This document shows positions 138-30,554 of a stretch of DNA of 39,167 nucleotides, piece after piece (position 1 is the stretch's first letter; each line of letters begins with the position of its first letter). The stretch is taken from contig CANQHY010000001.1 in the NCBI GenBank assembly GCA_947623975.1, positions 1 through 39,167 of the forward strand, in the 5' to 3' direction. Under the pieces are notes generated by a model. It searched no databases, was not told where the DNA came from, and saw only the letters and a list, made by a program, of their open reading frames with translations. Origin of the DNA: an uncultured Bacilli bacterium (GTDB lineage Bacteria; Bacillota_I; Bacilli_A; RF39; UBA660). A program made the translations under genes and the position numbers.

Positions 138-330
138 CATTATATCTTTTCTTTATTTTTCAAGAATGTAGCACAATATTCCATCAAATGTTCCTATAAT
201 ATTATGCGATAATATAAATACTAATAAAATGATAATTAGTATTAGAAATTAGATTAATAAATTTTTATTACTAAGGATTTATAAAATTATTAAAATCAGT
301 TCACTGTTATTAAAAAAAATGATATTATGA

Positions 331-352
331 TAGTACAAAGAACTTTGTACTA
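331..352. promoter_or_regulatory. Perfect 22-bp palindrome (operator-like) just upstream of the ASCH-fusion gene
   Basis: TAGTACAAAG-AA-CTTTGTACTA has 10-bp perfect arms. It lies 30 nt before the ATG at 382 and directly after a TATTAT -10-like box (324-329). Confidence 0.4.
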
Positions 353-381
353 AAATTTTATAATTTAGGAGTGTTAAAAAA

Positions 382-1293: not shown

Positions 1294-1310
1294 AAAAAAG
1301 ATTAATTTAA

Positions 1311-1367
1311 AAATATCTATTCAAATTTTCAAATATAAATAGGGAATTGATTAATAGATATTTTTTT
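1311..1367 (+). terminator. Terminator candidate (long-loop hairpin plus T-run)
   Basis: AAATATCTATT (1311-1321) pairs with AATAGATATTT (1353-1363), followed by a T-run. The 31-nt loop weakens the call. Confidence 0.35.
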
Positions 1368-1425
1368 GTTGTAAATGAAGTCCTATTATCGTTGATTTAA
1401 CTAAAATCATACTATATAATAAGTA

Positions 1426-4400
1426 ATGAGAGGTGAGTTTGTGAAAATTTTGAAAAAATTATTGTCAATTTTCTTAGTGGCAGCAATACTACTAAGTAAT
1501 TTTGGACCAACACTTATCTTTGCTTTGGAGTTAGATAATGTTGCTATGTATCGAACAATAGCAATCGATGATGAAATTACTCCAAAGGGGGATATTGAGG
1601 TCGAAGCCCATTTGGTACTTCCAATAAGAAATCGTGAAAAAAACAACATGGAATTCAAAATATACGACAAAGATAAAAATTGTGCTACGCTTGATTTAAA
1701 CAAAGTCAATGAACCAAGCGACGGATATTTTGAGACATCATTAACTTTAGGAGACCAAAAAGTTCGTGTTACAGTCACTGAACGTGATAAAGATGGAAAC
1801 TTATTAAGTGGCGTTGATTATGAAGAAAACGTCGTATATTTAAGTATCAATGTATATTCTCTTAATGTTGGAGATTATCGCGTTGAATTGAGTGGAAAAT
1901 ATTTTGTCACTTACGGTGTCGATGTTACACTTTCAGACTTTTCAAAAAGAATTAATATCACTGATGAAAGAGGAATGTTCGAAATTGGTGATATAAATGA
2001 AGACGGAAAAGTCGATAATAATGATAGCTTGTTAATGTTAAATGCTATAAAATCAAATAACAACACTTATGACTTGAATTTAGATGGTGTTGTTGATATT
2101 GCTGATTTAAATTATATAACAGCAATGTTAAATGGCGAAAAACATGAAAAAGAAATTAGTAATACTAGTGCTATCATAAGTAGTGAAAATGTGTCATTTA
2201 CGGTTCCAGAAGGAACTATAAAAGAAGGTTCACTTAACGATATTTTCTCTAATGACGGAGGCGTTACTTTACAACAAGTAGGTGACGAACCAATTAATCT
2301 TAGCCTAGATTTGAGTGGAAAAGATAACTCTTCGACTGTAGAAATGAGTGAAATTAGAATTGGTGTTGGTGATGAGACGCCAAAGAGCTTAAAAGTAGCT
2401 GTAGAATTAGAAAATGGTGACATAATCGTAAGAAATGTAACATCAACTAATAATCAAGATACTTATCCTTTTACCGATAGAGTTACAGAAAAAACTATTG
2501 TCGTTGATTTGGGAAAGCAAGTTGCTGTTAAAAAAGTAACAATTGTTGTTACAGAAGCATCTTCTAATAATTTAGCAGATATTGCTAAGGTAGAATTTTT
2601 AAATAACGTTAAAGTAAAGACAGAAGAACCTGATAATTTCTATACACCTGATAACATCAAAGTTGATAGTTCCGTAAGTGAGCAATTAACAATTAGCTTT
2701 AATTCTGTACCAAATGTTACTGGTTATGAGATTTGGGTAGTTGGACCAAAAATGGATACTGTATTCCAAACAACATATACAACATTTACGGTTGAAGATT
2801 TAAAGAACTATGCTACATATAAGATTTATGTACAATCTGCTAATCAGGAATGGCGAAGCGGATGGAGCGAAGCAATAGAAGCAACACCACAAGCAACAAG
2901 AAAAGCACCTAAAGTTGATATGGTTAAAGCAGAACCTACTTATGCTGGAATAAACTTTTCATGGAACGATATGGATGATACTTTATCATATAAACTTTAT
3001 TACCGTGAAAAAGGTGCTGATAAATTTGAACTTATAGATAACATTACTACTAATAGTTATAAATTAAAAGGATTAAAGGCATCGACAACATATGAAGCTT
3101 ATGTTTTAGGTGTAAATAAGATCGGGGAAAGCGAAACTTATACGTTAGTTAGTGCTAAAACCTTAGAATCAGGAGCTGCTATTGTTCCTAGATATTATCT
3201 AATTAATTCTGAATATGATCAATTAACAAAAAGAACAACACATATCGAAAAAGTTCAATATTCTACTGGAACAATGACAAATAATGATGGAAATTCAATT
3301 GTCGATGATGATTTTTCTACTTATTGGAATCATGATGATTGGCAAATTTCAGCTCACTATGGATTTAATACTGGAGCACCAGTTATTGTCTTAGATAAAG
3401 CTTATGAAATGGATGAATTTGTCATTACTGTTCCTGATGGCTTTAAATACAGTTATAAAGCAGGAGGGCAAAATAGTAATGATATAAAGCTTCATTATTG
3501 GAAAGAATCACATGATGTTTATAACGATACTGATCGAATAGAAGTAAAAGCTACTTTAACTACTAAAACAGATGAAAATAATCGTAAATATTATGTGTTA
3601 AAACTTGATGAGCCAATCACAGCAAAAGCTGTTTCTTTTGCACTTACTGTTGCTGGAAACGGAAGCAACAATATGCAAATAGACGAGGTTAAATTTTATA
3701 AATACGACTCATTAGTAGATGATGTTGCAGCACTATTTACTGATGATTTAAGATTAGTTCTTGCTGATGGTGTTGATATGGATGATATCAATGCTTTAAG
3801 AGAAAGAGCAGAACTTAAAGATAACGATGAATATTCGCCTTATAGAGATAGTGTTCTAGCCGATTTGGATTATGCTGAGAAGATTCTTAAGGATGAAAAA
3901 ATAGATGACGTTATTACGTTAAATCCTAACATTTCCAATAGTTATAATGGACATTTAAAATTTGCTATGACAATAAGTGATTATCAACCATTAGGAATTG
4001 TAGCAAGACCTGGTGAGACTTTAAATGTTTATGTTGGATCAACTGGCAGTGTAAATGTACAATTGGTATTTACACAATATCATGCCGAAGCAGGTGAATG
4101 GAATAAAACGTCAGTAGCTTTACAAAAAGGATTAAATATAATTAAAGTGCCAACGATTGGTTCTTCAACCGATGAACGTGGTGGAAGTGTCTATATTCGT
4201 TACACATCTAAGCCTGATGCAGCTAATCCAATTAAAGTAAGAGTTAGTGGTGGTACTAAAATACCTATGGTAGATACAACTTTGCTTGAGAATGACGAGT
4301 TAAAGAAAGAAGCTATCAAAAATTATATTGAAGAACTTACTGATTACAATAGTAAGCTAGAAAGCACTTATGCTAGTGAAGGTTTGATATTTGATAAGTA

Positions 4401-6603
4401 TAGTAGTGTTTTAGCATCTACAGAAATCGTTACAGAACATGGAATTTTCTCTGTATCTAGTATAGCTGTTTTAAATGCTTTAAACTCTAAAGCTACGACT
4501 ATCGAGGGAAAAACTGATACATTATTTGAATCAATGGAAGCATTCGATGAAATGATGGAGTTGTTCTATCGTCAAAAAGGATTATCAAGAAATGCTTCTG
4601 TTACAACTGATGAAATGCCAAAAGCTAGAATCAACATTCGTTATATGCAGATGTTTGATGGTGCCTTCATGTATGCTGGTGGGTACCACGTAGGTATCGA
4701 ATATGGTTCAATAGCAGGACTTGTTCAAGCAAGTAGAAATAGCGATAATGCTACTGGATATTTCGGTTGGGGAATAAGCCATGAGGTTGGTCATCAAATA
4801 AACCAAAAAGATACCGTATTTGCTGAGGTAACTAACAACATTTATGCATTACTTGCACAAACTAGCAACGATTATGATAATTCTCGTTTAGAGTTAAGTA
4901 ACATTTACGAAAAAATATATGATAAAGTAACATCTCATACTTTAGGAAGAGCACAAAATGTGTTTGTTCAATTGGGAATGTATTGGCAACTTCATCTAGC
5001 ATATGACGGAAACAAAACATTTAATGATGAAAATTCCATTTATGCAAGAATCAATAAATTCTCAAGAACATATACTAATCCAAACAAACTTTCAAGAGAT
5101 GAATTAACTATCCTTTATGCTAGTATCGCTGCTAATAAAGATTTAACTGATTTCTTTAGTGCTTGGGGATTAGTTGCAACTGATAAAGTAAAAGAAGAAA
5201 TAGCAAATTTAAAACTTGAAAAAGAAACAAGAGAAATTTACTATTTAAATGATGAAGCTAGAAGATATATATTAGCAGGTGGTGAAAAGATTACAAACTC
5301 AGATATTTTAACTGCTAGTATTGAAGATGCTTCTAGTACTAATAAACGCGTTACTTTAAACTTTAATGTTACAAATGAATCTAATAAGATATTAGGTTAT
5401 GAAATAATTCGTAATGGTGTGTCTATTGCCTTTGTTCCAAGTGGTATGAATACATTTACCGATAATATCGGAGCAGAAAACAATAGAGCATACACATACC
5501 AAGTAGTAGCATACGATTATCTATTGAATAAAACAAATACTGTAACATTAGATGAGATTAAAATCTCTCATGATGGAAGCGTTAAAAAAGATGCCTTTAC
5601 AATTACGTCAAATGTAAAAGAACAGGGCGAAATAGTCGATAATGAAGATATCGATTTAGATCCTAATAAATTACATGTAAATAATCTTATTGATGGAAAT
5701 CTTTCAACTGGATTTAAAGGTGATGAAAAAATTAAAACTTTGAATCAAACTAGTGATAAACCAAGTATTTCTGTCGATGATGGAAACGCTTACGTAATAA
5801 TTAATTTAAATAATTCAATGTCTGTAAGTGGTATCAAATATCGTGCTTTAGTAGAAGATGGCAATCTTGCTCCAAATACGATTACAAAATATAAAATTTC
5901 TGTAAGTGCAACAGGTGAAGATGGTAGTTGGATAGTTGCAAGAGTTGGAGAATTCAGTCTTAGTGCTGATAATCCTGAACAGACAGTTTACTTTATGGGT
6001 CAAGATACTGATAGCCAAAGTCAATTATGGACATATAATGGTGTAGGTTACATTAAGATTGAATCAGATGGTAACAAAGCTGGATTATCAGGAGCTGAAT
6101 TTGATGTTATTGCACCTCCTGGTGATAACGTTGACTTTAATAATGACTCTATTGGTTTATTAGAAGAAGATTATTGTTATCTAACAGCAGGATGCCCTAT
6201 CGATAAAGTCGATGAAAATGGTGATGTTGAAGGAATAATTAAGGCTGGTTCTGTAGTTATTCAAGGATCATACCGTGGCAATCCATCATTTAACAACGTA
6301 TTAATAGCAGATGCCAACAATATAGAAAAAGTATATGGCGGATATTTCTTACTATTTGCCGAGCTTAATAGTGATAATTCAGTCTATGATGTTGCAAATG
6401 GAACTTGGTTATATGTTATGACAAAAGAAGAATATGAAAAAATGATAGGTGAATCAACAAGTATTCGTGCTTACTTATATAGAGTTAATAATGCCATTAC
6501 AAATGCCGGTCAAAGATTAACTAGTACATCTAAGATGGTTACTGATTTGAAAAAATATGATGAATTAACAAAAATTCAAATTAAAGATACAAATAAGAAA
6601 TAG
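1426..6603 (+). CDS. Secreted multidomain M60-like (enhancin-like) zinc metallopeptidase with dockerin, FN3 and CBM32/F5-8-type-C-like modules
   Basis: Signal peptide KILKKLLSIFLVAAILLSNFGPTLIFA. Zinc motif GWGISHEVGHQ (HEVGH at 4780-4794) with a downstream AEVTNN Glu. Two FN3-like segments (aa ~405-580). Repeated ...I(D/A)EV(K/E)F... carbohydrate-binding-module-like segments. GTG at 1441 behind GAGAGGTGAG is the more likely true start. Confidence 0.85.
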   Translation: MRGEFVKILKKLLSIFLVAAILLSNFGPTLIFALELDNVAMYRTIAIDDEITPKGDIEVEAHLVLPIRNREKNNMEFKIYDKDKNCATLDLNKVNEPSDGYFETSLTLGDQKVRVTVTERDKDGNLLSGVDYEENVVYLSINVYSLNVGDYRVELSGKYFVTYGVDVTLSDFSKRINITDERGMFEIGDINEDGKVDNNDSLLMLNAIKSNNNTYDLNLDGVVDIADLNYITAMLNGEKHEKEISNTSAIISSENVSFTVPEGTIKEGSLNDIFSNDGGVTLQQVGDEPINLSLDLSGKDNSSTVEMSEIRIGVGDETPKSLKVAVELENGDIIVRNVTSTNNQDTYPFTDRVTEKTIVVDLGKQVAVKKVTIVVTEASSNNLADIAKVEFLNNVKVKTEEPDNFYTPDNIKVDSSVSEQLTISFNSVPNVTGYEIWVVGPKMDTVFQTTYTTFTVEDLKNYATYKIYVQSANQEWRSGWSEAIEATPQATRKAPKVDMVKAEPTYAGINFSWNDMDDTLSYKLYYREKGADKFELIDNITTNSYKLKGLKASTTYEAYVLGVNKIGESETYTLVSAKTLESGAAIVPRYYLINSEYDQLTKRTTHIEKVQYSTGTMTNNDGNSIVDDDFSTYWNHDDWQISAHYGFNTGAPVIVLDKAYEMDEFVITVPDGFKYSYKAGGQNSNDIKLHYWKESHDVYNDTDRIEVKATLTTKTDENNRKYYVLKLDEPITAKAVSFALTVAGNGSNNMQIDEVKFYKYDSLVDDVAALFTDDLRLVLADGVDMDDINALRERAELKDNDEYSPYRDSVLADLDYAEKILKDEKIDDVITLNPNISNSYNGHLKFAMTISDYQPLGIVARPGETLNVYVGSTGSVNVQLVFTQYHAEAGEWNKTSVALQKGLNIIKVPTIGSSTDERGGSVYIRYTSKPDAANPIKVRVSGGTKIPMVDTTLLENDELKKEAIKNYIEELTDYNSKLESTYASEGLIFDKYSSVLASTEIVTEHGIFSVSSIAVLNALNSKATTIEGKTDTLFESMEAFDEMMELFYRQKGLSRNASVTTDEMPKARINIRYMQMFDGAFMYAGGYHVGIEYGSIAGLVQASRNSDNATGYFGWGISHEVGHQINQKDTVFAEVTNNIYALLAQTSNDYDNSRLELSNIYEKIYDKVTSHTLGRAQNVFVQLGMYWQLHLAYDGNKTFNDENSIYARINKFSRTYTNPNKLSRDELTILYASIAANKDLTDFFSAWGLVATDKVKEEIANLKLEKETREIYYLNDEARRYILAGGEKITNSDILTASIEDASSTNKRVTLNFNVTNESNKILGYEIIRNGVSIAFVPSGMNTFTDNIGAENNRAYTYQVVAYDYLLNKTNTVTLDEIKISHDGSVKKDAFTITSNVKEQGEIVDNEDIDLDPNKLHVNNLIDGNLSTGFKGDEKIKTLNQTSDKPSISVDDGNAYVIINLNNSMSVSGIKYRALVEDGNLAPNTITKYKISVSATGEDGSWIVARVGEFSLSADNPEQTVYFMGQDTDSQSQLWTYNGVGYIKIESDGNKAGLSGAEFDVIAPPGDNVDFNNDSIGLLEEDYCYLTAGCPIDKVDENGDVEGIIKAGSVVIQGSYRGNPSFNNVLIADANNIEKVYGGYFLLFAELNSDNSVYDVANGTWLYVMTKEEYEKMIGESTSIRAYLYRVNNAITNAGQRLTSTSKMVTDLKKYDELTKIQIKDTNKK
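1987..2136 (+). other. Dockerin module (two Ca-binding EF-hand-like segments) inside the M60 peptidase
   Basis: DINEDGKVDNND...LLMLNAI and DLNLDGVVDIAD...LNYITAML both fit the D-x-N-x-D-G-x-x-D-x-x-D loop plus helix. They sit at aa ~188-236 rather than at the C-terminus. Confidence 0.65.
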
Positions 6604-8835: not shown

Positions 8836-8973
8836 TATAAATGATTAGTAATGAATAGTGTAAAGTGCCAGAAAAAAGGATTATTTATTTAAGTTATCGT
8901 TGACTATCATTCTTTCTAAATGATAATATTTTATTGTATAAAAAATATGTCGATAAGAAAGGATTTTTATAAT

Positions 8974-11900
8974 ATGAGAAAGCTTAAAAAGAAATGGATT
9001 AAAACAATTTTAGCTACTTTTACTATTACTCTGTTGACTGTAATAGGTATATCTATTGTATCTAATACATCGGCACTAGAGATAGTAAAATACGTAGAAC
9101 CAGGAGCAGGTACACTAAAAAAGGCCGTTAGTGAAGCTGAACCTGGAACTATTTTAAAATTAAGAGCTGGTTCTTATACAGGAGGTAGCGGTAGTGATAA
9201 AACCGTTATTATTGATAAAGAACTTACAATTGAAGGAGTAGGAACTAGACTAAGTTCAAATAGTAACAAGACGGTTATCGATGTTCCGATAACCGTAGCT
9301 ACTACTGATAAGGTTGTCCTATCTGGATTTGAATCTGGTAGTCAAAGCGTCGAGCCCAATTTTATTTTTATAAAAGCCGATGCTAAAGTTAACTTGGATA
9401 TAAAAGATGTTTATATTTGGGGAATACTAAGATCATCTAATGGTAGTTATCCAATTCATGATGCAATGGCTTTAAATGTTACTGATAAAGCAGATGGCTC
9501 TGTCATTAACATTACAGGAACTTCCTTTGTTAAACCTGGTGTTCACTATGGTATTTATGTTAATGCTAGCGATACTACCATAAACATTTCTAAATCTGAA
9601 ATATTAGGAAGAACTGCAATTAAATATGAAGATGGTAGCAACAATAAACTATACATAAGAGATAAATCTTTAATTATTGGACCATCAGTAAGTTATAGAG
9701 ATAATGAAACTATTGCAATAAACAAAGAGGATAGACTAACTATCGAAATAGATGATTCTACAATAAATAGTGAAATTCCTAGTGGAAATGGACCTACTAA
9801 AATGTTTTCATTTGGAACTGGTGAAAATAAGAGCACTAACGTAGTAATCGATATAAAGAATGGAAGCATAATTGCTGATAAGGATCTTCCAAATGCTAGA
9901 AGCAATAACAGTGTAATTTTTGGTTTTGCTCCTGATAATACAGCAAGTGACAACAATATTGTAAAAATTGACAATACGTCTAGTATGTATCTTTCTTTAG
10001 TTGATGGTGGTCACAATGAAATATCAAAAGATGTTTTAACATTAGAACGTAAATATAGCAAGACAGTTGGTGCTGGAGTTGTAGGTATTTATGATAGCGA
10101 AGGTAATGCTTTAATTAAACTTTATGATGGAAATACCCAAATTTCTGAACTAACTCAAAATAAATATATCGAAAAAGAAGGTAATATCTTCAAAGGTTGG
10201 TTTAGAAACTTTGATGGCAATACTTATAGTGATGAATATCAGAAAGATAATGATGTCTATCCAGCCGTTGTTAGTGGTACAAATATGGATTTGTATGCTA
10301 AGTTTGTTAAATTAATACATTTGACAATTAAAAATGTTCCTAGTGGTAGTGGAGTAGAAAATAAAGAATATATTCTAGAAGAAGGACAAACTATTGCAGA
10401 AAGCAAATATGCTGAACAAATAAGAAAAGATTTAACTAGTATTCAAAACAAAGAAGGACAAGTATTTAAGGGTTTTGTTATTTATAATGGTAATGGCTCT
10501 CTAGCGTATGATCCTTCTTATGAGGAAGAATTAATTAATTCTTTAGAAATGACACAAGATTGTAGTATTGAAGCAATACATCAAGTTTCTATTACAATAA
10601 ACGAAGAAGAGCCTTTCTATTTAGATGCTGGAAAAACACTAAATGATCTTAAAGATGATCCACGCTTTACTACTGTTAAAATGAAAAACAGTAATGGAAG
10701 AGAGTTCTCTAGGTTTGTCGATGAAAAAGGTAGAGAAGTTGGCTACGAAGATGGTATTACAGCAAATGTTAAACTTACATCTAAATATTTAAATCAGATA
10801 ACAATTGATGGTAATAATTATCCACTAGAAGAAGGACTTACTTTAAATTCTAGCGAAGAAATTAAAACAGCTCTTGAATCTATAAGTGGTGAAATAGAGG
10901 GAAGACATTTTAGTGGTTTCGTAGATAAAACTGGAAAACAAATAAATCTTGAAAAAGATAAAATAGAAGAAAGTATTGAAATCGAAGCAATATATAAAAT
11001 AAAAGTAAAATTAGTTGGTAAAAAAGATACTAAAACTTATGAAATAGTTGCTGGAAATAATTTAAAAAGCCTAAATAATGATAGTGAAATATTAAGTGCT
11101 ATGGATGATGTTTCCCAAAATATCGAAAAAGGAAAAACATTTGATGGATTTGTAGCATCTTATGATAAAGATTCTAGTAATATTATATTTGATAGAACAA
11201 AAGAAAAAGATAAAGAAATATTAAAACAGGAATTACTATTACAAAATCTTTTATACGATACGACAATTTATGCAAGATACAACATAGTACTAACAATAGG
11301 TGATGAAGAATTTGAACTTGAAGCAGGAGAAACTATAGAAAAAGCTATTTTAAATAGTGGTAATAATGAATTAAAAGAACGTTACAATGCTGCTAAATAT
11401 AATAAAAAAGAAGAAAATAGATTTTCTAGATTTGTTGATGAAGAAGGAAATGAAATAAAAGAGACAGACGAGATTGAAAAATCTATGACTTTAACTCCTA
11501 AATATTTAGTATTCATTACAATTGAAGACGAAAGAGAAAATGTAGGAGGAGTATACAGCTTAGAAGAAGGAAATAGTATTAACGATTTTACAGATGAAAG
11601 AGCAAATAGAGCTTTAGAAACGTTAAGACTTGATATAGTATCAGATCAAGATGAAAATGGTGAAAACTTACATTTTGACAAAATAGTAGATGAAAAAGGA
11701 AATGATATAGAATTAGATTCTATTACTAAAGATATTACAATTAAAGCTCTTTATCATTATGATGTAAGTATTGTCGAAGATTATGATAATCCTATTTATG
11801 GTGATAGCGAGATTCATGAAGGTACTAAAGGATTAAAAGCTTATCGTAACGAAACATTGCGATCTAATGAACAAAAAATAAAAGAGGCTCTAAAATTATT

Positions 11901-13812
11901 AAAAGATTCTGCAAATAACGAAGAAAAAAATAGAAAATTTTACTCTTATATTGAGACTAATACTAATAGAGAATTCATGGAAAATGAATTAGATGAACTT
12001 TTAGATACCAAATTTAATACTCATTTATACATTAATGCTAAAGTATCTTACAAAGTAAAAGTAGGAACTGTTGATTACTATGTAGTAGAAGGAAAAAAGA
12101 TTAAAGAAAGTGGTAATAGTGAGCTTCTTACAGCAATAGAAAACTTAAAAAATGTACCAGGAAAAGTAATTAATAAATTTTTAGTTAATGGCAAAGAAAT
12201 GACTATGGATGAGGTTTCTAATCTTGTTGTTAGCGAGTATGTTGAAATAACTGCTAAATATGGTGTTGAGGTTAAAATTGGTAGTGAAACCTTTACCATT
12301 GAAGAAGGAAAAACACTAGCAGATTATGAAAATCAAGATGCTATTGATGAGGCACTTAATGCTTTAAAGCAACAAGTTATTGACGATGGTTATAATTTCA
12401 AAGGATTCTACTATACTGATGGAGAAAGTAACCTTGATTTTAGTAAAGATGACACTGTAATAGTTAAAAATACGACTATTGGAGCAAGGTACAATATCGA
12501 GATAACTATCGAAGGAGAAACAACTAAAAAATTTGAAATTGAAGCGGGCGAGACACTAGCAGATATTAAAAAGAATAATGAGAGTGATTACAATTTAGTT
12601 CAAACAAAAGAAGATAGAACTTTCTTACATTTTGTAACAGAAGATAAAACAATACTTGAAAGTGACGATACATCTTATAAATTTAATAAAAATACTAAAT
12701 TAACTGCAATTTTTGCTGTCACTGTCAAAATTAGTGAAAAAGATTATTATCTTGAAGAAGGTAAAAAATTATCTAGTGATACCAAGATAATTGAATCATT
12801 AGGAAAGCTAGAGCGAGAAGATATGCGTCTTGTTGGAGTAGTAACTGATAAAGATGATACTTTAATTACCTTAGAGTCAATTAATAATAAAGAGGACGAA
12901 GAAATTAATGACAATATTGTCTTAACTCCTAAGTACGTTGTTGACGTGGAAATTGTGGGCAATGAAACTTATAAGGAAACAGTTGACTTAGATACACTTG
13001 TAAAAGATTTGAAATATCAAAAACCTGATAAATTCATAAGATTTGTTGATTATGAAACAAACGCTACTGTTAATGATGATGATAAACTTACAAAACATAC
13101 AAAATTGAAAGCTATTTATGGAATTGAGGTAACTATAAATGGAAATCCATATTATTTAGAAGCTTTCCAAACATTCGGTGATTTAAAGGATGCTGAAGAA
13201 GATCTAGAGGCAATGAAAAAAGTCCCTGAAGGTAGAATATCATTTAAGAGATTTGTCTTTGTTGACGATGGTGTAGAAATAGAGCTTAACAAAGATACTG
13301 TTCTTACTAAAGATATCGTAGTAGTTAGTAAGTTTACAATAGAAATTAATGTAGTTTATAAAAATGATGATGGAAAGTATAAAGATATTGTCAGTGTAGA
13401 ATTAGAAGAGGGAAGAACAATTGGAGATTTATCTAGTGAGGAATTAGAAAAATTAAATAATAAATTAAGAGAGTTAGAAAAACAAGCAGAGCAAGAAGGA
13501 AAGAAAGATTATAAATTCTCTAAATTTATCAAAGAAGATGGTTCGGAAATTGATACTAAGACAACAGAATTTAATTCTAGTTCGACAATAGAAGCAGTAT
13601 TCGAGTACAAAAAAGAACCAACACCAATAGAGCCAAATGACCCTGATGCTGAACATGGAAATAATACACCAAATACAGGTGTTGAACAGGTTAAAAAAGT
13701 AAATAATTATACTTTTGTATTCCCAATTCTTCTTGTCTTAATAATAGTAATATGTGCCTTAGTAATTGGATACAAAAAATATTCTGCAAAGAATAGAAAA
13801 GAAGAATTTTAA
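8974..13812 (+). CDS. Giant cell-surface protein: signal peptide, right-handed beta-helix-like head, ~14 Flg_new-like repeats, xPxTG-type wall/membrane anchor
   Basis: The tracked ORF opens at 8920, but ATG 8974 gives a proper signal peptide (MRKLKKKWIKTILATFTITLLTVIGISIVSNTSA). The head contains GTILKLRAGSYTGG. One canonical repeat reads NIFKGWF...LYAKF. C-terminus: TPNTG (13666-13680), hydrophobic FVFPILLVLIIVICALVIGY, then KKYSAKNRK. Confidence 0.85.
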   Translation: MRKLKKKWIKTILATFTITLLTVIGISIVSNTSALEIVKYVEPGAGTLKKAVSEAEPGTILKLRAGSYTGGSGSDKTVIIDKELTIEGVGTRLSSNSNKTVIDVPITVATTDKVVLSGFESGSQSVEPNFIFIKADAKVNLDIKDVYIWGILRSSNGSYPIHDAMALNVTDKADGSVINITGTSFVKPGVHYGIYVNASDTTINISKSEILGRTAIKYEDGSNNKLYIRDKSLIIGPSVSYRDNETIAINKEDRLTIEIDDSTINSEIPSGNGPTKMFSFGTGENKSTNVVIDIKNGSIIADKDLPNARSNNSVIFGFAPDNTASDNNIVKIDNTSSMYLSLVDGGHNEISKDVLTLERKYSKTVGAGVVGIYDSEGNALIKLYDGNTQISELTQNKYIEKEGNIFKGWFRNFDGNTYSDEYQKDNDVYPAVVSGTNMDLYAKFVKLIHLTIKNVPSGSGVENKEYILEEGQTIAESKYAEQIRKDLTSIQNKEGQVFKGFVIYNGNGSLAYDPSYEEELINSLEMTQDCSIEAIHQVSITINEEEPFYLDAGKTLNDLKDDPRFTTVKMKNSNGREFSRFVDEKGREVGYEDGITANVKLTSKYLNQITIDGNNYPLEEGLTLNSSEEIKTALESISGEIEGRHFSGFVDKTGKQINLEKDKIEESIEIEAIYKIKVKLVGKKDTKTYEIVAGNNLKSLNNDSEILSAMDDVSQNIEKGKTFDGFVASYDKDSSNIIFDRTKEKDKEILKQELLLQNLLYDTTIYARYNIVLTIGDEEFELEAGETIEKAILNSGNNELKERYNAAKYNKKEENRFSRFVDEEGNEIKETDEIEKSMTLTPKYLVFITIEDERENVGGVYSLEEGNSINDFTDERANRALETLRLDIVSDQDENGENLHFDKIVDEKGNDIELDSITKDITIKALYHYDVSIVEDYDNPIYGDSEIHEGTKGLKAYRNETLRSNEQKIKEALKLLKDSANNEEKNRKFYSYIETNTNREFMENELDELLDTKFNTHLYINAKVSYKVKVGTVDYYVVEGKKIKESGNSELLTAIENLKNVPGKVINKFLVNGKEMTMDEVSNLVVSEYVEITAKYGVEVKIGSETFTIEEGKTLADYENQDAIDEALNALKQQVIDDGYNFKGFYYTDGESNLDFSKDDTVIVKNTTIGARYNIEITIEGETTKKFEIEAGETLADIKKNNESDYNLVQTKEDRTFLHFVTEDKTILESDDTSYKFNKNTKLTAIFAVTVKISEKDYYLEEGKKLSSDTKIIESLGKLEREDMRLVGVVTDKDDTLITLESINNKEDEEINDNIVLTPKYVVDVEIVGNETYKETVDLDTLVKDLKYQKPDKFIRFVDYETNATVNDDDKLTKHTKLKAIYGIEVTINGNPYYLEAFQTFGDLKDAEEDLEAMKKVPEGRISFKRFVFVDDGVEIELNKDTVLTKDIVVVSKFTIEINVVYKNDDGKYKDIVSVELEEGRTIGDLSSEELEKLNNKLRELEKQAEQEGKKDYKFSKFIKEDGSEIDTKTTEFNSSSTIEAVFEYKKEPTPIEPNDPDAEHGNNTPNTGVEQVKKVNNYTFVFPILLVLIIVICALVIGYKKYSAKNRKEEF
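10300..13610 (+). repeat. About 14 tandem, highly diverged 60-95-aa protein repeats (Listeria-Bacteroides / Flg_new-like)
   Basis: Recurrent pattern [VI]x[VI]x[VI]...Y.LEEG.T(L/I)...F(S/K)(R/G)FVDE.G.EI...(L/I)...(K/R)Y. Examples: FSRFVDEKGREV, FSGFVDKTGKQI, FSRFVDEEGNEI, FIRFVDYETNATV, FKRFVFVDDGVEI, FSKFIKEDGSEI. Confidence 0.75.
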
Positions 13813-21406: not shown

Positions 21407-22672
21407 ATGAAAGTATTGTGGGTAACCTCCCAAATTCTTCCACTAGTCGCAAATGAATTAGATGTAAAAACTAGTGGTTTTGGTGGATGGGTTATGAATA
21501 TGCTCTGTGAACTAGACAAAAAAAAAGATATTGAAATAGGAATTGTTATGGTATCTGATAAAGTAAAAGAAATAAAAACAATAAAAGTTGATAGATTCAT
21601 TTGCTATGTTGCACCAGAATATGGGAAAAAGAACATAAAAGATGAATATAGAGATGAAATATTAAACAGATTTATACCAGACATAATACATATTGAGGGA
21701 AACGAGTTTGGTATACAAAATAAGTTCTCCAAAGTCAAAAAATATCCTGTTTTAGTTTCATTGCAAGGAATTTTATCTGGTTATGAACCTTATCAGTATG
21801 GAGAAATACAGATTTCTGATCATTTATTCAACATATTTGATAAACATTTTCTACCATCATGGACAATTTTCTTTAGGAAAAAATTTAGGTTTAATAAAAG
21901 ATTGGCGATAGAAAATGAAACCATATCTAATGCTAATTATTTAACAGGAAGAACATTTTGGGATAGAGCACATAGTTATTGGTTAAATTCACGTGCTTAT
22001 TATTTTGAATGTAATAGAATTTTAAGACCAGTTTTTTATAGCGAAACTTGGGATATAAACGAAATAGAAGAGAAAACTTTATTTGTCGGAAATGGTTATT
22101 CGCCATTGAAAGGTTTGCATTTTGTACTTGAGGCTGTTAATCTTCTTAAAAAAGAATATAAAAATATAAAGTTATACGTTGCTGGAAATTGCCCAGTAGT
22201 AGAAAAAAACAAAATATCATTACACAAGTTTGGGTATAGTATGTATATTAAACAATTAATAAAAAAATATGATTTAGAAAAACAAGTGATTTTTACTGGT
22301 TCTTTGAATGGTGAAGAAATGGTTAAAGTTATGAAAAAGTGCAACATATATGTATTACCATCACTGATTGAAAACAGTCCAAATACGTTAGGCGAAGCTA
22401 TGATTTTGGGAATGCCATGCGTTTCTGCATATACAGGTGGTGCATCTCAAATGGCAATTGACGAGAAAGAGTGCCTTTTTTATCGCGCAAACGACCCTAA
22501 TTTGTTGGCATGGCAGGTAAAAAGGTTATTTGATGATAAAAATCTTGCAATTAAAATAGGCGAAAATGCTAAAAAGCACGCTCGAATTACACATAATGCT
22601 GAAGAAAATTGCAAAAAATTAATAGAAGGTTATAATAAGATATTGGAGAATAGTAAGTCTAATGAAAAATAA
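21407..22672 (+). CDS. Glycosyltransferase family 4
   Basis: The start abuts the wzy stop (TAGATG). Motif ENSPNTLGEAMILGMPCVSAYTGGASQMAIDEKECLFY. Confidence 0.85.
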   Translation: MKVLWVTSQILPLVANELDVKTSGFGGWVMNMLCELDKKKDIEIGIVMVSDKVKEIKTIKVDRFICYVAPEYGKKNIKDEYRDEILNRFIPDIIHIEGNEFGIQNKFSKVKKYPVLVSLQGILSGYEPYQYGEIQISDHLFNIFDKHFLPSWTIFFRKKFRFNKRLAIENETISNANYLTGRTFWDRAHSYWLNSRAYYFECNRILRPVFYSETWDINEIEEKTLFVGNGYSPLKGLHFVLEAVNLLKKEYKNIKLYVAGNCPVVEKNKISLHKFGYSMYIKQLIKKYDLEKQVIFTGSLNGEEMVKVMKKCNIYVLPSLIENSPNTLGEAMILGMPCVSAYTGGASQMAIDEKECLFYRANDPNLLAWQVKRLFDDKNLAIKIGENAKKHARITHNAEENCKKLIEGYNKILENSKSNEK

Positions 22673-23867
22673 TAAAACGTTAAAAATGTATATAAAAACA
22701 ATTTTATATAAATTGATATGTGTATTGGTTGGCTTCCTTAATTCGATATTAATTAATAGGAGTTTGGGTGTTGCATTAAGAGGAGAATATACATCAATTA
22801 CAAATTGGGCAAGTTTAATTCAACTTTTTTTAAATCTTGGTATTGGTACAATTTATCCATCAATAAAAAGGGAAAACAATGAGGAAGCAAAAAGTATAAT
22901 CTCAACCTTATTATACATGGTAGGTATCATGTATTTGGTGTTAATTATAATTTTATTTCCTTTCTTATCAACAAAAGTGAGATATATAGCAATTTTGTCA
23001 TACTTACTAACATTAGAAAACATTATTTTATTTGTAGCTATAGTCGAGGATGTTTCAAAAAAGAATTTTATCAATATAATTACTTCTATTTTGCATACCG
23101 TGGTTCTATTTATCATATATTATTCTTTTAAAAGAAATTTAGATATGATAATTTTAGCTGTTTTTTTAGATCATATTTTGTTATCTTTGTTATTGGTTGC
23201 AAATTATAAAATTACTATATTTGATAGAGGAAAAATAAATAAATCTCTTCTTAAATCTATATCCTATCAATCATTTCCTGCTATGTTAATGAATATGTTG
23301 ATGTATTTAAATTATCATGCTGATATTTTGTTTTTAAGTTCAATGACAAAAAATTCTGTACAAGTGGGATTATATGGTACTGCCGTGTCATTAGGGAATA
23401 TGCTTTGGATAATTCCAGATGCTTTTAAAGATATTCTTTATAATAGATCAACAAAAAGAGATAATCCAAAAGAAATTAAAATTGCTATATTAATAAATAT
23501 AGTAATTTGTATATTTGTAATAATTGGGTTTATATTTCTAGGAAAATGGTTTTTGATTACTATGTATGGTGAGGAGTATTTAAATTCATATGGAATAGCA
23601 TTAATAATTTTTATTGGTACAATACCAATGATTTTGTATAAATTGATACATCCAATTTATATTGCAAATGGAAAAACAAGCGTTGTAGTTATCTTACTTT
23701 TAATTGCAGTTATTACCAATATATTGGGTAATATAATTTTAATTCCTCAATTTGAAGGTATTGGAGCTGCCTTATCATCAGTTATTTCGTATTCAATTTG
23801 CGGAATTGCGTTCTATTTGAGATTTGTTAAGGATTATAATAAGAAAAGAGGGAAATTAAATGAATAA
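22662..23867 (+). CDS. wzx: Polysaccharide flippase (MOP/Wzx family)
   Basis: Polytopic protein with about 10-12 TM helices. Overlaps the upstream gene by 11 nt and the downstream gene by 8 nt. Position is typical for wzx. Confidence 0.7.
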   Translation: MKNNKTLKMYIKTILYKLICVLVGFLNSILINRSLGVALRGEYTSITNWASLIQLFLNLGIGTIYPSIKRENNEEAKSIISTLLYMVGIMYLVLIIILFPFLSTKVRYIAILSYLLTLENIILFVAIVEDVSKKNFINIITSILHTVVLFIIYYSFKRNLDMIILAVFLDHILLSLLLVANYKITIFDRGKINKSLLKSISYQSFPAMLMNMLMYLNYHADILFLSSMTKNSVQVGLYGTAVSLGNMLWIIPDAFKDILYNRSTKRDNPKEIKIAILINIVICIFVIIGFIFLGKWFLITMYGEEYLNSYGIALIIFIGTIPMILYKLIHPIYIANGKTSVVVILLLIAVITNILGNIILIPQFEGIGAALSSVISYSICGIAFYLRFVKDYNKKRGKLNE

Positions 23868-27295: not shown

Positions 27296-28345
27296 ATGAA
27301 AAATAAAATAAATTTAGAAAATAAAACAATATTAGTTACTGGCTCATCAGGTTTTATTGGGGCTAATCTTACTAAAAGATTGTTGAGCGAATATCCAACC
27401 TGTACTGTTATTGGTCTTGATAATATGAATGAATATTATGACATTAGAATTAAAGAATCAAGATTAAAAGAATTGGAAAAATTTACCAATTTTAATTTCA
27501 TTAAAGGAAATCTTGCTGATAAAGAGTTAATTAATTCCTTATTTGAAAAGTACAAACCTAGTGTAGTAGTTAATTTAGCTGCCCAAGCAGGAGTTAGATA
27601 TTCTATTACTAATCCTGACGCTTATATCGAATCAAACATAATTGGATTTTATAATATATTAGAGGCTTGCAGAAACTATCCTGTTGAACATTTAGTTTAT
27701 GCTTCATCATCATCAGTATATGGAGGTAACACCAAAGTTCCTTTCTCAACTGACGATAAAGTAGATAATCCAGTAAGCCTATATGCTGCTACTAAAAAGT
27801 CTAACGAATTGATGGCTCACGCTTATTCAAAACTATACAATATACCTAGTACAGGTTTAAGATTCTTTACAGTTTATGGACCTGCAGGAAGACCTGATAT
27901 GGCTTATTTTGGATTTACAGATAAATTAATTAAAGGTGAAACAATAAAAATATTTAATTATGGAAATTGTAAAAGAGACTTTACTTATGTTGATGATATA
28001 GTGGAAGGAATAGTTAGAGTAATGCAGGGCGCACCTGAGAAGAAAAATGGTGATGATGGACTTCCTATTCCGCCTTATGCAGTTTATAACATAGGAAACA
28101 GTAATCCTGAAAACTTGTTAGATTTTGTAAATATATTACAAGAAGAATTGGTAAGGGCAGGAGTACTTCCAAAAGACTATGATTTTGAATCTCACAAAGA
28201 GTTAGTGCCTATGCAAGCAGGAGATGTTCCAGTAACTTATGCAGATACTACACCTCTAGAAAAAGATTTTGGCTTTAAGCCAAGTACATCTTTAAGAGAA
28301 GGCTTAAGAAAATTTGCCGATTGGTATAAAGAATTTTATATGTAA
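27296..28345 (+). CDS. NAD-dependent epimerase, UDP-glucuronate 4-epimerase-like
   Basis: ILVTGSSGFIGANL...GLDNMNEYYDIRIKESRL...ASSSSVYG...YAATKKSNE is typical of the CapI/LpsL/WbnF group. Confidence 0.8.
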   Translation: MKNKINLENKTILVTGSSGFIGANLTKRLLSEYPTCTVIGLDNMNEYYDIRIKESRLKELEKFTNFNFIKGNLADKELINSLFEKYKPSVVVNLAAQAGVRYSITNPDAYIESNIIGFYNILEACRNYPVEHLVYASSSSVYGGNTKVPFSTDDKVDNPVSLYAATKKSNELMAHAYSKLYNIPSTGLRFFTVYGPAGRPDMAYFGFTDKLIKGETIKIFNYGNCKRDFTYVDDIVEGIVRVMQGAPEKKNGDDGLPIPPYAVYNIGNSNPENLLDFVNILQEELVRAGVLPKDYDFESHKELVPMQAGDVPVTYADTTPLEKDFGFKPSTSLREGLRKFADWYKEFYM

Positions 28346-28371
28346 TGGTTTTTATAGACCATTATTTTTTT
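28344..28371 (+). terminator. Terminator ending the glycan operon
   Basis: AATGGT (28344-28349) pairs with ACCATT (28358-28363), followed by ATTTTTTT. The short 6-bp stem overlaps the stop codon. Confidence 0.5.
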
Positions 28372-28399
28372 ATTATAATCATTTTAGTAATTAAATTTG

Positions 28400-28427
28400 T
28401 TGACTTTTTACAAAAATGGTATAAAAT
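28400..28427 (+). promoter_or_regulatory. Promoter candidate for the ATPase/Toprim pair
   Basis: TTGACT (28400-28405), a 16-nt spacer, then TAAAAT (28422-28427). A TG lies at 28417-28418. Confidence 0.5.
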
Positions 28428-28510
28428 ATAACAACAACATCAAAAATATTTCAAAAAATGGTATTATTTAGTTAGTTTTGTGATACAATATTATCGAAAG
28501 GAAGATTGTT

Positions 28511-29833
28511 ATGATAAGATATGTTAAACTAGTTAATTATAAGTCACTTGTTAATTTGCATGTTGATTTTATGAAAACTAAAACAAAATCTAAAAATCTA
28601 GTACTTATATATGGTGAAAATGGAATAGGAAAATCTAATTTTGCAAATTCATTTTATACTCTTAATGAAACAATGAGAACATTATCTTCTATTGAAATGC
28701 TTAAAAAAATAATTGAAAAAAAAGAAGATAAATCTAATCAATATGAGGATTTTATTGAAAAATATGCAAAACATAGTTTTAAAGATATTAAAACGATTAT
28801 AGATGATTGCAAAACAATTGATTCAAAAGATAATATGATAATGGAATATGGATTCATTTGTAATAAGAAAAAAGGAATTTATCGTATTGAAATGAATAAC
28901 GAGGAAATTGTTGCTGAAAGACTAGAATATGTTATTAGTAAAAATCAAACATATTTTTTTGACATAGATAAAAGAAATGTTAAAATTAATAATAATATTT
29001 TTACCGATAAAAGTTATTATAACGAATTTATTGAATTGATTGATAAATATTGGGGTAAACATTCTTTCCTTTCAATTTTGTCATACGAAATTGAGGACAA
29101 AAAAAGAGAATATATGAATAAAAAAATATCCAAAAATTTGTTTGATGTATTGTTATATTTGAAAATGATATGTACAAAAATAAAAGGTGGTAATCATAGC
29201 GAGTTTGGTATAATTGGAACTAAACATAATTTAATTGATGATCTTGAAGAAGGTAAGATTCTTGTAAAATATGAAAAAGAACTTAATAAAAATGAATATC
29301 TAATAAATGAAATATTTACTAACTTGTATTCCGATATAAAGAATGTTTATTATAAGAAAATAAATGAAGATAATTACATAAAATATAAACTTTTTTGTAA
29401 AAAAACTATTTATGGCAAAACAATGGATGTAGATTTTTCTCTTGAATCTACAGGAACACAAAATATTTTAACGCTAATACCATATTTAATATCTGCATGT
29501 GAGGGACAGACAGTAATAATTGATGAACTAGATACTGGAATACATGACATACTTGTAAAAAACTTGTTAGAGTGTATTTCAAAATATGTTAAAGGGCAAC
29601 TGATTATTACTACTCATAATACAATGCTAATAGATTCATCAATACCACATGATAATATTTATATTTTTAATGCTAATAGTAAATCCGAAAAAGAACTAAT
29701 TGCAATAACTAATTTTGAAGGAAGAATTCATAAGAATAATAGTCCAAGAAGAAAATATCTTAATGGCGTTTATGGTGGAATTCCTATGCCTGCAGATATA
29801 GATTTTGAGGAATTAATTGAAAATCTAAAATAG
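28511..29833 (+). CDS. AAA_21/AAA_15-type (RecF/SMC-like ABC) ATPase, predicted defence-system component
   Basis: RBS AAAGGAAG. N-terminus IRYVKLVNYKSL. Walker A GENGIGKSN (from 28613). About 290-aa helical insert. Signature-like ESTGTQ, Walker B VIIDELDTGIH, QLIITTHN, and C-terminal YLNGVYGGIPMP. Confidence 0.85.
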   Translation: MIRYVKLVNYKSLVNLHVDFMKTKTKSKNLVLIYGENGIGKSNFANSFYTLNETMRTLSSIEMLKKIIEKKEDKSNQYEDFIEKYAKHSFKDIKTIIDDCKTIDSKDNMIMEYGFICNKKKGIYRIEMNNEEIVAERLEYVISKNQTYFFDIDKRNVKINNNIFTDKSYYNEFIELIDKYWGKHSFLSILSYEIEDKKREYMNKKISKNLFDVLLYLKMICTKIKGGNHSEFGIIGTKHNLIDDLEEGKILVKYEKELNKNEYLINEIFTNLYSDIKNVYYKKINEDNYIKYKLFCKKTIYGKTMDVDFSLESTGTQNILTLIPYLISACEGQTVIIDELDTGIHDILVKNLLECISKYVKGQLIITTHNTMLIDSSIPHDNIYIFNANSKSEKELIAITNFEGRIHKNNSPRRKYLNGVYGGIPMPADIDFEELIENLK

Positions 29834-29848
29834 AGGAAATAAAATTTA

Positions 29849-30436
29849 ATGAAGCAGTTAAATTATACAAAAGCTGTTGTAATTGTTCATGGTAAATCGG
29901 AGATGCAAATTTGTCAATATATTAAGAATAAACTCAGATTAAAAATGGAAATATATAGTGACAAAAATGGTGAAAAGGCTATACAAATAACTAGTTTAAA
30001 AAACACACTGAATAATAAGATATTTAAATCGTTTAAAAATTTTATTAAAACTTACGAAGATATAAAATTAACTGATGATGGAAAGTCTATAGATGCCAAT
30101 TTTAAAATATTTATAATTATGGATACTGATGACTGTAGCGAAAAACAAAAAAAAGATTTTATTAGTTGTGAAATGTTTAAAGAACATTGGGCTTATAAGT
30201 ATATAGTGCCTATATATAATATCCCTGAATTAGAGTCGGTATTAGAAATGGCAAATATTCCCTTTAAAAAATTAGGAGATAAAAGAAAAGCGGAATATGT
30301 AAAAATATTTCCAACTGATCCAAAATATAAAAAGTCTGATGAAATTCAAATTCAAGAATTACTTAATAAATTAAAAAAGCAACAAAATACTAATTTAAAT
30401 GAATTTTTAGAATTTTGCTTAAAATCCGTTCTTTAG
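29849..30436 (+). CDS. Small Toprim-clan protein (RloB/DUF4276-like), predicted effector partner of the ATPase
   Basis: Starts 15 nt after the ATPase stop. VVIVHGKSEMQICQYIKNKL (the EG-x-x-E-type segment, with His in place of the first Glu), IFIIMDTDD (DTDD at 30122-30133) and YNIPELESVL (compare the SNPcFElWll segment of RloB). Confidence 0.6.
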   Translation: MKQLNYTKAVVIVHGKSEMQICQYIKNKLRLKMEIYSDKNGEKAIQITSLKNTLNNKIFKSFKNFIKTYEDIKLTDDGKSIDANFKIFIIMDTDDCSEKQKKDFISCEMFKEHWAYKYIVPIYNIPELESVLEMANIPFKKLGDKRKAEYVKIFPTDPKYKKSDEIQIQELLNKLKKQQNTNLNEFLEFCLKSVL

Positions 30437-30450
30437 CGGATTTTTTTATT
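30421..30450 (+). terminator. Rho-independent terminator of the two-gene module
   Basis: AAAATCCG (30421-30428) pairs with CGGATTTT (30437-30444) with an 8-nt loop. The T-run continues. The stop codon lies in the loop. Confidence 0.7.
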
Positions 30451-30496
30451 ATGATTTATACAGCTTAAAAAATAAACAGAAAAAAATATAAAATAC

Positions 30497-30525
30497 TTTA
30501 ATTTTTGGCTATTTTGTAGTATAAT
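30497..30525 (+). promoter_or_regulatory. Promoter candidate for the kinase / nucleotidyltransferase genes
   Basis: TTTAAT (30497-30502), a 17-nt spacer, then TATAAT (30520-30525). It lies 30 nt before the ATG at 30555. Confidence 0.45.
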
Positions 30526-30554
30526 ATGAGCACTTATGAATTTAGGGGTGTTTT

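Follow-up and report, generated by a model that had tools for sequence, protein, structure and literature searches.

A mobile gene pair of an AbiLi-like ABC ATPase and a divergent RloB-like protein in an uncultured Bacilli bacterium as a candidate abortive-infection cassette

Two adjacent genes, ORF1 and ORF2 (for open reading frame), located on a 39,167-nucleotide stretch of DNA from an uncultured Bacilli bacterium (GenBank assembly GCA_947623975.1, contig CANQHY010000001.1, positions 1 to 39,167 of the forward strand; this whole stretch is referred to as the window), probably form a mobile AbiL/PARIS-like abortive-infection cassette with a variant RloB-like effector. We put the probability of this interpretation at roughly two thirds, the role in defence being suggested by homology, by the mobility of the pair and by its presence on phages and plasmids. 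The cassette falls into the class of systems that combine an ATP-binding cassette (ABC) ATPase with a small Toprim-clan partner, which comprises AbiL, RloA/RloB, MADS3-4, HEC-01 and, more distantly, PARIS. Its architecture is already known from AbiL and RloAB-type pairs and the system is not categorically new. What is new here is a large, taxonomically broad and unannotated family of partner proteins that carries a fixed exchange of glutamate for histidine and is accompanied by its own clade of AbiLi-like ATPases. The two genes are:

28511 to 29833, plus strand: ORF1, an AbiLi-like ABC (AAA_21) ATPase of 440 amino acids, identified by Pfam, PADLOC and PHROG matches and by invariant catalytic motifs.
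29849 to 30436, plus strand: ORF2, a divergent RloB-like (Toprim-clan) protein of 195 amino acids and presumed effector, identified by profile-profile comparison, motifs and a structural model.

These positions and the intergenic gap of 15 nt agree with the list of open reading frames and stand as they were given in the initial annotation of the window, which had been made by a model from the letters of the DNA. Each gene is preceded by a putative ribosome-binding site (AAAGGAAG at 28497-28504 for ORF1 and GAGGAA at 29833-29838 for ORF2). Both are real genes: a first protein search returned 640 homologues of ORF2 at E <= 0.001, and an exhaustive search with hidden Markov models (HMMs) yielded 360 clusters of its family at 50% identity, nearly all of them 185-210 residues long. 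Every named copy is annotated as 'hypothetical'.

ORF1 is a member of the AAA_21 family (PF13304; 56.9 bits at a gathering cutoff of 27, E 4.6e-15). By far its best PADLOC match is AbiLi (PDLC02335; E 1.3e-41, 140.8 bits, residues 1-433), weaker ones being AriA (1.8e-15), PDC-M07A, HEC-01A, mad3 and PtuA. A further match, to positions 31-415 of the 1071 positions of phrog_5836 (E 4.4e-41), suggests from the length of the profile that some proteins of this phage family are much longer and possibly fused. The RecF/SMC-like ABC layout recognised at the outset is borne out by the AbiLi and AAA_21 matches, and all motifs quoted for it are present, namely GENGIGKS (residues 35-42), STGTQ (313-317), VIIDELD (335-341) and ITTHN (366-370); the insert that separates Walker A from the signature motif has to be corrected from about 290 to about 270 residues. 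The catalytic residues are K41 of Walker A, S313 to G315 of the signature, D338-E339 of Walker B, D341 of the D-loop and H369 of the H-loop. Among 75 orthologues with 30-87% identity, G35-E-N-G-x-G-K41, S313/G315, D338-E339, D341 and H369 are invariant, and as judged from this pattern ORF1 is a working, catalytically intact ATPase under purifying selection. A sequence search of the PDB with ORF1 returned nothing at E <= 0.01.

A scan of species-representative genomes yielded 80 loci, distributed over Bacilli known from metagenome-assembled genomes (MAGs), Lachnospiraceae, Oscillospiraceae, Ruminiclostridium, Merdibacter, Fusobacterium, Brachyspira and Melainabacteria. Wherever there was room upstream of the small gene (78 loci), a homologue of the ATPase with 435-498 residues lies directly before it on the same strand, and with a single exception the two genes are -77 to +21 nt apart, the pair being apparently co-transcribed as a single unit. 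Pairwise identities of the ATPases and of the ORF2 homologues correlate with r = 0.95 across 73 loci (0/500 in a Mantel test), and the two genes therefore travel and evolve together. A conserved third gene was not found across the homologous loci, whose flanking genes differ from one locus to the next in size and orientation. A flanking gene in common with the window is present in a single one of the 80 loci (Coprobacillus sp. CAG:605), and there at a different position; relatives whose cassettes are 78-88% identical sit among unrelated genes. The cassette is horizontally mobile. Two cassettes that are equally similar to that of the window (68% identity) carry the labels Bacilli (L017) and Bacteroidaceae (L018), and one with 82% identity (L007) is labelled Oscillospiraceae while the other close relatives are Bacilli; these labels reflect either very recent transfer or contamination during the binning of MAGs.

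Window-type pairs and AbiL/RloAB pairs alike occupy accessory slots on prophages and plasmids. In the temperate Oenococcus phage phi9805 the cassette is inserted between a gene for a transcriptional activator and exonuclease/terminase genes, in viral contigs from IMG/VR it lies between a DNA helicase gene and the genes for terminase, portal and major head protein, and on a conjugative plasmid of Enterococcus faecalis it adjoins integrase, Fic, IS256 and type I S subunit genes. A canonical pair of ATPase and RloB follows the lysin gene in the Lactococcus prophage proPhi7, where both proteins are annotated as 'abortive phage resistance protein', and another is flanked by the replication genes and the portal gene in a Klebsiella P2-like phage. 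Among temperate phages, such accessory slots are where defence genes are typically found.

The second protein of the cassette is distinguished by a conserved pattern that consists of H14-G15-x-x-E18, D92-x-D94-D95, P121-I122-Y-N124...L128-E129, Y150 and T181-N182 and includes the segments VVIVHGKSE, IIMDTDD and YNIPELESVL, all present as first quoted. In an alignment of 95 members that are 29-58% identical to ORF2, the histidine H14 is found in 89 and is never replaced by glutamate. Nearly as constant or even more so are G15 (93 of the 95 members), E18 (91), D92 (93), D94 (87, plus four with glutamate), P121 and I122 (92 and 93), glutamate or aspartate at position 129 (92), Y150 (90), threonine or serine at position 181 (94) and N182 (all 95). 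That a histidine takes the place of the first Toprim glutamate, an observation originally made on the single sequence, is accordingly true of the family as a whole. Among 150 cluster representatives, 120 contain x-H-G-x-x-E and none has glutamate at the position of the histidine; most of the other 30 are devoid of the whole motif and many of these are fragments. H14 aligns with the invariant E19 of RloB, and the conserved glutamate that follows beta1 in Toprim domains is missing from the family; the DxD after beta3 and the further acidic ligands of such domains are present (D92, D94, E18, E/D129). Since the histidine, the glycine and the acidic residues are 92-98% conserved at 29-58% overall identity, the site is under selection and probably active, and the pattern suggests an active site that is altered but functional rather than a decayed pseudo-enzyme. 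As a matter of speculation, the exchange of glutamate for histidine might bring about a preference for metals of the Mn/Zn type or provide a histidine as general base.

Two loci with aberrant small genes were noticed. In phage phi9805 (9014-9517) the small gene encodes 167 amino acids and has kept IVHGKSE, MDLDD and PIFCDRNLED, its C-terminus is divergent and lacks Y150 and the TN motif, and GenBank lists an ORF of 149 amino acids starting at 9068; as read from the sequence, this is possibly a frameshifted or decaying copy. In a Lachnospiraceae MAG (L055, 9986-10603) the small gene is split into ORFs of 74 and 115 amino acids next to an intact ATPase gene, probably as the result of pseudogenisation of the partner or of an assembly error.

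Very probably, the ORF2 proteins form a family of their own in the Toprim clan that has RloB as a distant relative and does not belong to PF13707 as the latter is currently defined. RloB itself has been placed in the Toprim clan in the literature. For comparison, a set of RloB proteins was compiled from annotated PF13707 proteins that adjoin homologous ATPases and was supplemented with relatives from databases. These canonical partners stem from an Enterococcus faecium plasmid (200 amino acids), a Clostridium beijerinckii plasmid (245), the Lactococcus prophage proPhi7 (192), the 3.9-kb Escherichia coli mini-plasmid pZ1323CEC0016-6 (205) and the Klebsiella P2-like phage ST13-OXA48phi12.1 (239). 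The proposal that the effector is far shorter than usual and represents a minimal form does not hold in view of these lengths of 192-245 amino acids; small size is thus not a distinguishing property of ORF2, the histidine and the divergence of sequence are.

In a comparison by hhalign, the ORF2 family aligned with a diverse profile of 20 RloB sequences over 167 columns, that is almost the full length of both profiles, with a probability of 83%, P 9.1e-6 and a score of 41.5. The reversed profile scored 13.2, and 150 block shuffles reached a mean of 17.3 and a maximum of 30.0, so that 0/150 were as good as the true alignment (z about 9). With a 19-sequence RloB profile the score was 25.8 (P 0.0033), higher than that of any of 200 column shuffles or 200 block shuffles; of the RloB profiles that were tried, only the enriched version with 20 sequences was judged convincing. 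Against single RloB sequences the N-terminal motif alone was aligned by hhalign, and not significantly, and reciprocal hmmsearch between the two families was marginal (12-13 bits). The Pfam RloB HMM matched neither ORF2 nor its 95 relatives at E <= 1, nor the ten most RloB-like members at E <= 10, and a Pfam scan of the 95 relatives found nothing. When the same 95 proteins were scanned with PADLOC, AbiLii was matched by 14 (weakly, best E 5.8e-5), mad4 by four and HEC-01B by two. All three models describe partners of ATPases whose own models are matched by ORF1, and the estimated chance expectation for one particular model of 5027 in 95 scans is about 0.02 matches.

The motif blocks of the two families are co-linear: IFCEGxTE of RloB corresponds to vIvHGKSE of the ORF2 family, YVVYDKD to FIIMDxDD, SNxCFE to YNxxxLE and NPYTN to xxxTN, the third of these correspondences being the least certain, as it varies between alternative alignments. 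A structural model computed with AlphaFold2 from the 95-sequence alignment reached a pLDDT score (for the predicted local distance difference test) of 94.3 and a predicted template modelling (TM) score of 0.90, whereas a first model from a shallow alignment had a pLDDT of 67.6. In the order beta1(9-13)-alpha-beta2-alpha-beta3(86-92)-alpha-beta4(119-124)-alpha, H14 and E18 are placed after beta1, D92 and D94 at the end of beta3 and E129 after beta4; in this model, the layout of strands and helices is the one expected of a Toprim domain. Among the viral models of BFVD, the best Foldseek match is the homologue from Oenococcus phage phi9805 (8e-6), followed by an annotated RloB-like protein (E 2.4e-3, probability 1.0, TM score 0.49) and, further down, by a DnaG Toprim domain (0.13) and a topoisomerase II. 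Topoisomerase II cores also recur among the non-significant Foldseek matches in the PDB. Sequence-profile searches of the PDB with the ORF2 family gave no match, and canonical RloB is likewise without a PDB relative that can be detected by sequence.

AbiL (AbiLi/AbiLii) of Lactococcus and the wider RloA/RloB group are the closest known systems in layout. They too consist of two adjacent, co-oriented genes, the first encoding an AAA_21 ABC ATPase of about 420-540 amino acids and the second an RloB-type partner of about 190-245 amino acids. ORF1 is recognised as AbiLi by PADLOC (1.3e-41); the gene next to it, in contrast, is not matched by the AbiLii model (E <= 1), and the pair is therefore filed as AbiL-like and not as AbiL. 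From RloB, the ORF2 family differs in that the invariant glutamate of CEGxTE is the histidine of HGKSE, and in that the block SNxCFEyWlLLHF with its invariant His116 is represented by PIYNxxNLExVL. The ATPases that go with RloB partners are 24-35% identical to ORF1, partly in partial alignments. In one locus (L058), a canonical RloB gene (181-975, minus strand; RloB HMM, E 1.7e-15) adjoins an ORF of 441 amino acids (978-2300, minus strand) and lies about 1.2 kb upstream of a cassette with the histidine variant, which may mean that two paralogous ATPase/RloB-type systems stand side by side. On a 5.6-kb plasmid of Acinetobacter baumannii (L090, 1574-3383), a distant homologue of the ATPase is followed by an overlapping gene for a 'hypothetical protein' of 145 amino acids that is not RloB. 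Pairs of this type recur on many small Acinetobacter plasmids, and the 145-residue protein may represent another unannotated partner family.

With PARIS, the cassette shares an ABC ATPase and a separate Toprim-clan effector that are often borne by phages or satellites. The acidic set of AriB comprises E26, D30, D88, E90 and E122, and exchange of E26 for alanine abolishes defence (PMC11464382). H14, E18, D92, D94 and E129 of ORF2 occur in the same order; the essential E26, however, corresponds to the histidine. PARIS differs further in that the match of ORF1 to AriA is a generic AAA_21 match (1.8e-15 as opposed to 1.3e-41 for AbiLi), that ORF2 matches neither DUF4435 nor AriB, and that ORF2 with its 195 amino acids lacks the extra dimerisation region of AriB, a protein of about 35 kDa. 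HEC-01 and the MAD3/MAD4 proteins of MADS are likewise pairs of an ABC ATPase and a small Toprim-type protein, and ORF1 matches HEC-01A and mad3. These matches are weak, and MAD3/4 belongs as an accessory to a methylation-associated system of eight genes and HEC-01 lies within Hma systems, whereas the cassette in the window stands alone. The same ABC ATPase and Toprim modules and the same general logic are found in OLD and in GajA of Gabija, where the modules are fused in one polypeptide instead of being encoded by separate genes as in the window. A conserved neighbour of the GajB helicase type is absent, the match of ORF1 to GajA is marginal (3.9e-4, confined to the C-terminal part of the ATPase) and Toprim_OLD is not matched.

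AbiL and MADS3-4 have been grouped with the defence systems that combine an ABC ATPase with a Toprim protein (PMC11464382). In PARIS, a hexamer of AriA sequesters AriB, which is released by a phage trigger together with ATP, dimerises, cleaves tRNA-Lys and thereby stops translation (PMC11464382). By analogy, an oligomer of ORF1 would hold the small partner in an inactive state and sense a trigger derived from the phage; ATP-dependent release or activation would then allow the partner to cut nucleic acid, the most likely substrate being tRNA of the host or other RNA; translation would come to a halt and the infection would be aborted. Pairings of an ABC ATPase with a Toprim protein are among the most widespread anti-phage architectures, and PARIS is the only one with a known mechanism, while those of AbiL, RloAB, MADS3-4 and HEC-01 are still unexplained. 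A more far-reaching idea, which we advance tentatively and consider rather unlikely, is that the HGKSE family represents a distinct effector class that arose from RloB/Toprim and has a changed chemistry or a new substrate, and that the cassette, widespread in gut Bacillota and phages, is a new subtype of defence system that has its own trigger and target. If true, the histidine would confer RNA cleavage that depends on a transition metal or uses histidine as a general base, possibly independently of metal, or it would go along with a new substrate. Given that the change affects the very residue whose mutation kills PARIS, the family amounts to a natural experiment on Toprim catalysis. Tools of the PADLOC type would not call this cassette since ORF2 matches none of the effector models of PADLOC, and such systems are probably under-counted in defence surveys because Pfam, NCBIfam, PADLOC and PHROGs all miss the ORF2 family. 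The practical value is modest and consists in a further candidate defence system of gut commensals and their phages.

Several findings weigh against the interpretation as an abortive-infection cassette. Some of them concern the effector. No model of Pfam, NCBIfam, PADLOC (E <= 1) or PHROGs matched ORF2, the Pfam models RloB, DUF4276 and DUF4435 and the PADLOC models AbiLii and AriB included. Of its original placement with RloB, DUF4276 and DUF4435 in the Toprim clan, the remote homology to RloB as detected by hhalign (P 9.1e-6) can be retained, whereas the HMMs of all three families miss the protein. Foldseek searches of the PDB with both AlphaFold2 models gave no significant match; with the model from 95 sequences the best E was 0.045, and the structures of OLD, GajA and AriB are absent from the best 50 matches. 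Nuclease activity of ORF2 is not to be assumed because the residue equivalent to the essential E26 of AriB is absent. Others concern related systems: AbiL acts after transcription on Ceduovirus phages by a mechanism that is unexplained (PMC13064643), and HEC-01, a related pair of ABC ATPase and Toprim protein, did not protect E. coli when assayed there (bioRxiv 10.1101/2024.01.29.577857). A defence phenotype should not be taken for granted. The third group concerns the neighbourhood. The genes that directly flank 72 cassettes encode a mixed set of 144 proteins, mostly of the housekeeping kind, and by our estimate only about a tenth of these have PADLOC matches at 1e-10. The enrichment of homologous pairs in defence islands, on which the initial annotation had staked its proposal, is not clearly apparent among these 72 cassettes. 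The most frequent neighbours are trigger factor (5), ABC transporters (4), QueA (3) and PurH (3), besides two serine recombinases and two tyrosine integrases. Those with PADLOC matches comprise four mad3-type ATPases, three PDC-M36A, two mad8 and one each of a CBASS cyclase, a type I S subunit and SduA.

The first group of findings would agree with a role of ORF2 as an adaptor or regulator without catalysis, a Toprim scaffold that lost its nuclease chemistry with the exchange of glutamate for histidine. The ATPase would then act by another mechanism, for instance SMC-like clamping, or DNA binding or cleavage by a host factor. The glutamate that is essential in AriB is indeed missing in every member of the family, and no active Toprim nuclease came up as a significant structural match. 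On the other hand, conservation of the putative metal ligands E18, D92, D94 and E/D129 and of the histidine at 92-98% is the pattern of an active site and would not be expected of a relaxed scaffold, and histidine is well able to bind metal and to act as a general base. We therefore regard a purely structural role of ORF2 as improbable.

A compact two-gene unit that has its own promoter, moves among unrelated contexts, plasmids and phages and is surrounded mostly by housekeeping genes instead of defence islands might also be a selfish toxin-antitoxin addiction cassette, in which the ATPase would neutralise a small Toprim-like toxin and which would persist by post-segregational killing or simply by horizontal spread, without a real anti-phage role. 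PARIS, too, formally behaves like a type II toxin-antitoxin pair (PMC13064643). Toxin-antitoxin-like behaviour and abortive infection are compatible, however, and PARIS shows both; a large ATPase with invariant catalytic motifs exceeds the needs of a simple antitoxin, and the phage accessory slots beside packaging genes are typical of phage-borne defence genes. Addiction without defence is thus another explanation of low probability, and a cassette that aborts phage infection is preferred.

As initially proposed, the pair is situated within a capsule or glycan locus, with genes for polysaccharide biosynthesis annotated on both sides. Upstream, these encode Wzy, a GT1 glycosyltransferase, Polysacc_synt_2, a CapF-like epimerase, UDP-GlcNAc 2-epimerase and an NAD-epimerase, and downstream a GHMP sugar kinase, a nucleotidyltransferase and UDP-glucose dehydrogenase. 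This location and weak matches of ORF1 to the P-loop regions of SMC_N and RecF would agree with a housekeeping function either in polysaccharide metabolism, for example as an export ATPase of the ABC type, or in DNA repair of the RecF/SbcC kind. Such a function is highly improbable: a transmembrane partner is not present, the best matches of ORF1 are defence ATPases and not transporters (ABC_tran, E 0.028), synteny with the window is restricted to the one locus mentioned above, and the cassette has no constant third gene. A role in polysaccharide export was rejected on the last two grounds. The G+C content of the two-gene module (21.5-24%) is lower than that of its flanks (28-30%), and this dip together with the cassette's own promoter argues for insertion into the locus. 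The features around the two genes are:

28342 to 28372, plus strand: terminator-like hairpin of the upstream operon, a 10-bp stem (28342-28365) followed by a U-run; folding energy (dG) -9.5 kcal/mol, z -3.3.
28400 to 28432, plus strand: promoter P1, with the -35 box TTGACT (28400-28405), a 16-nt spacer and the -10 box TAAAAT (28422-28427) inside GGTATAAAATATAAC; 10/12 matches in the promoter scan.
28407 to 28422 and 28449 to 28464, plus strand: two copies, 42 nt apart, of the 16-nt direct repeat TTTaCAAAAATGGTAT (repeat family D11) in the promoter region.
28481 to 28489, plus strand: second extended -10-like element, TGATACAAT in the window, 22 nt upstream of the ORF1 start and conserved in six cassettes.
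30421 to 30451, plus strand: intrinsic terminator from the terminator scan, a hairpin (30421-30444) with a 10-bp stem and a U-run; dG -9.4 kcal/mol, z -2.8.

The promoter scan of the window returned 24 sites at 24.0 expected, which is not above chance in DNA so rich in A and T. P1 is nearly invariant in an alignment of the window's cassette with those of five relatives (L002-L006), which occupy unrelated contexts, and it gains support because conservation among these cassettes begins exactly at the -35 box. A promoter of the pair's own at 28400-28427, as originally suggested, is hence borne out by the cassette alignment and not by the scan alone. The second -10-like element reads TGATATAAT in L002, L003 and L005 and TGCTATAAT in L004 and L006, and from its sequence may act as a promoter element of the -10 type. 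Both copies of the direct repeat are kept in relatives sitting in unrelated contexts; they could possibly serve as an operator for autoregulation or be part of a pair of tandem extended -10 promoters.

The left border of conservation is abrupt and coincides with the -35 box at 28400, from where conservation continues through both -10 elements and the ribosome-binding site; the right border, in the comparison of the window with the same five relatives, is the stop codon of ORF2. The mobile unit therefore consists of the promoter and the two genes, approximately 28396-30436 or 2.04 kb. The hairpin at 28342-28365 lies outside of it, as the sequence upstream of 28396 is not kept in related cassettes; with its U-run and folding energy it agrees with the terminator that had been proposed to close the glycan operon. 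The terminator assigned to the module itself is confirmed as a hairpin by scan and folding and overlaps the stop codon of ORF2, but it is local to the copy in the window, not conserved in L002-L006 and thus no part of the conserved cassette. A repeat search of the window revealed neither terminal repeats nor convincing flanking direct or inverted repeats, and a recombinase belonging to the cassette was not found. An empty insertion site was sought by looking up the exact proteins encoded by the flanking genes and by ORF2, which brought up nothing on record, and an Rfam search of the intergenic regions gave no match.

Two further observations concern the remainder of the window. Within the glycan operon, an ORF of 401 amino acids (22662-23867) has no Pfam match at 1e-5, all of its neighbours being annotated. 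Upstream of the polysaccharide locus lie two very large ORFs of 1725 and 1630 amino acids (1426-6603 and 8920-13812), which may encode surface or cell-wall proteins.

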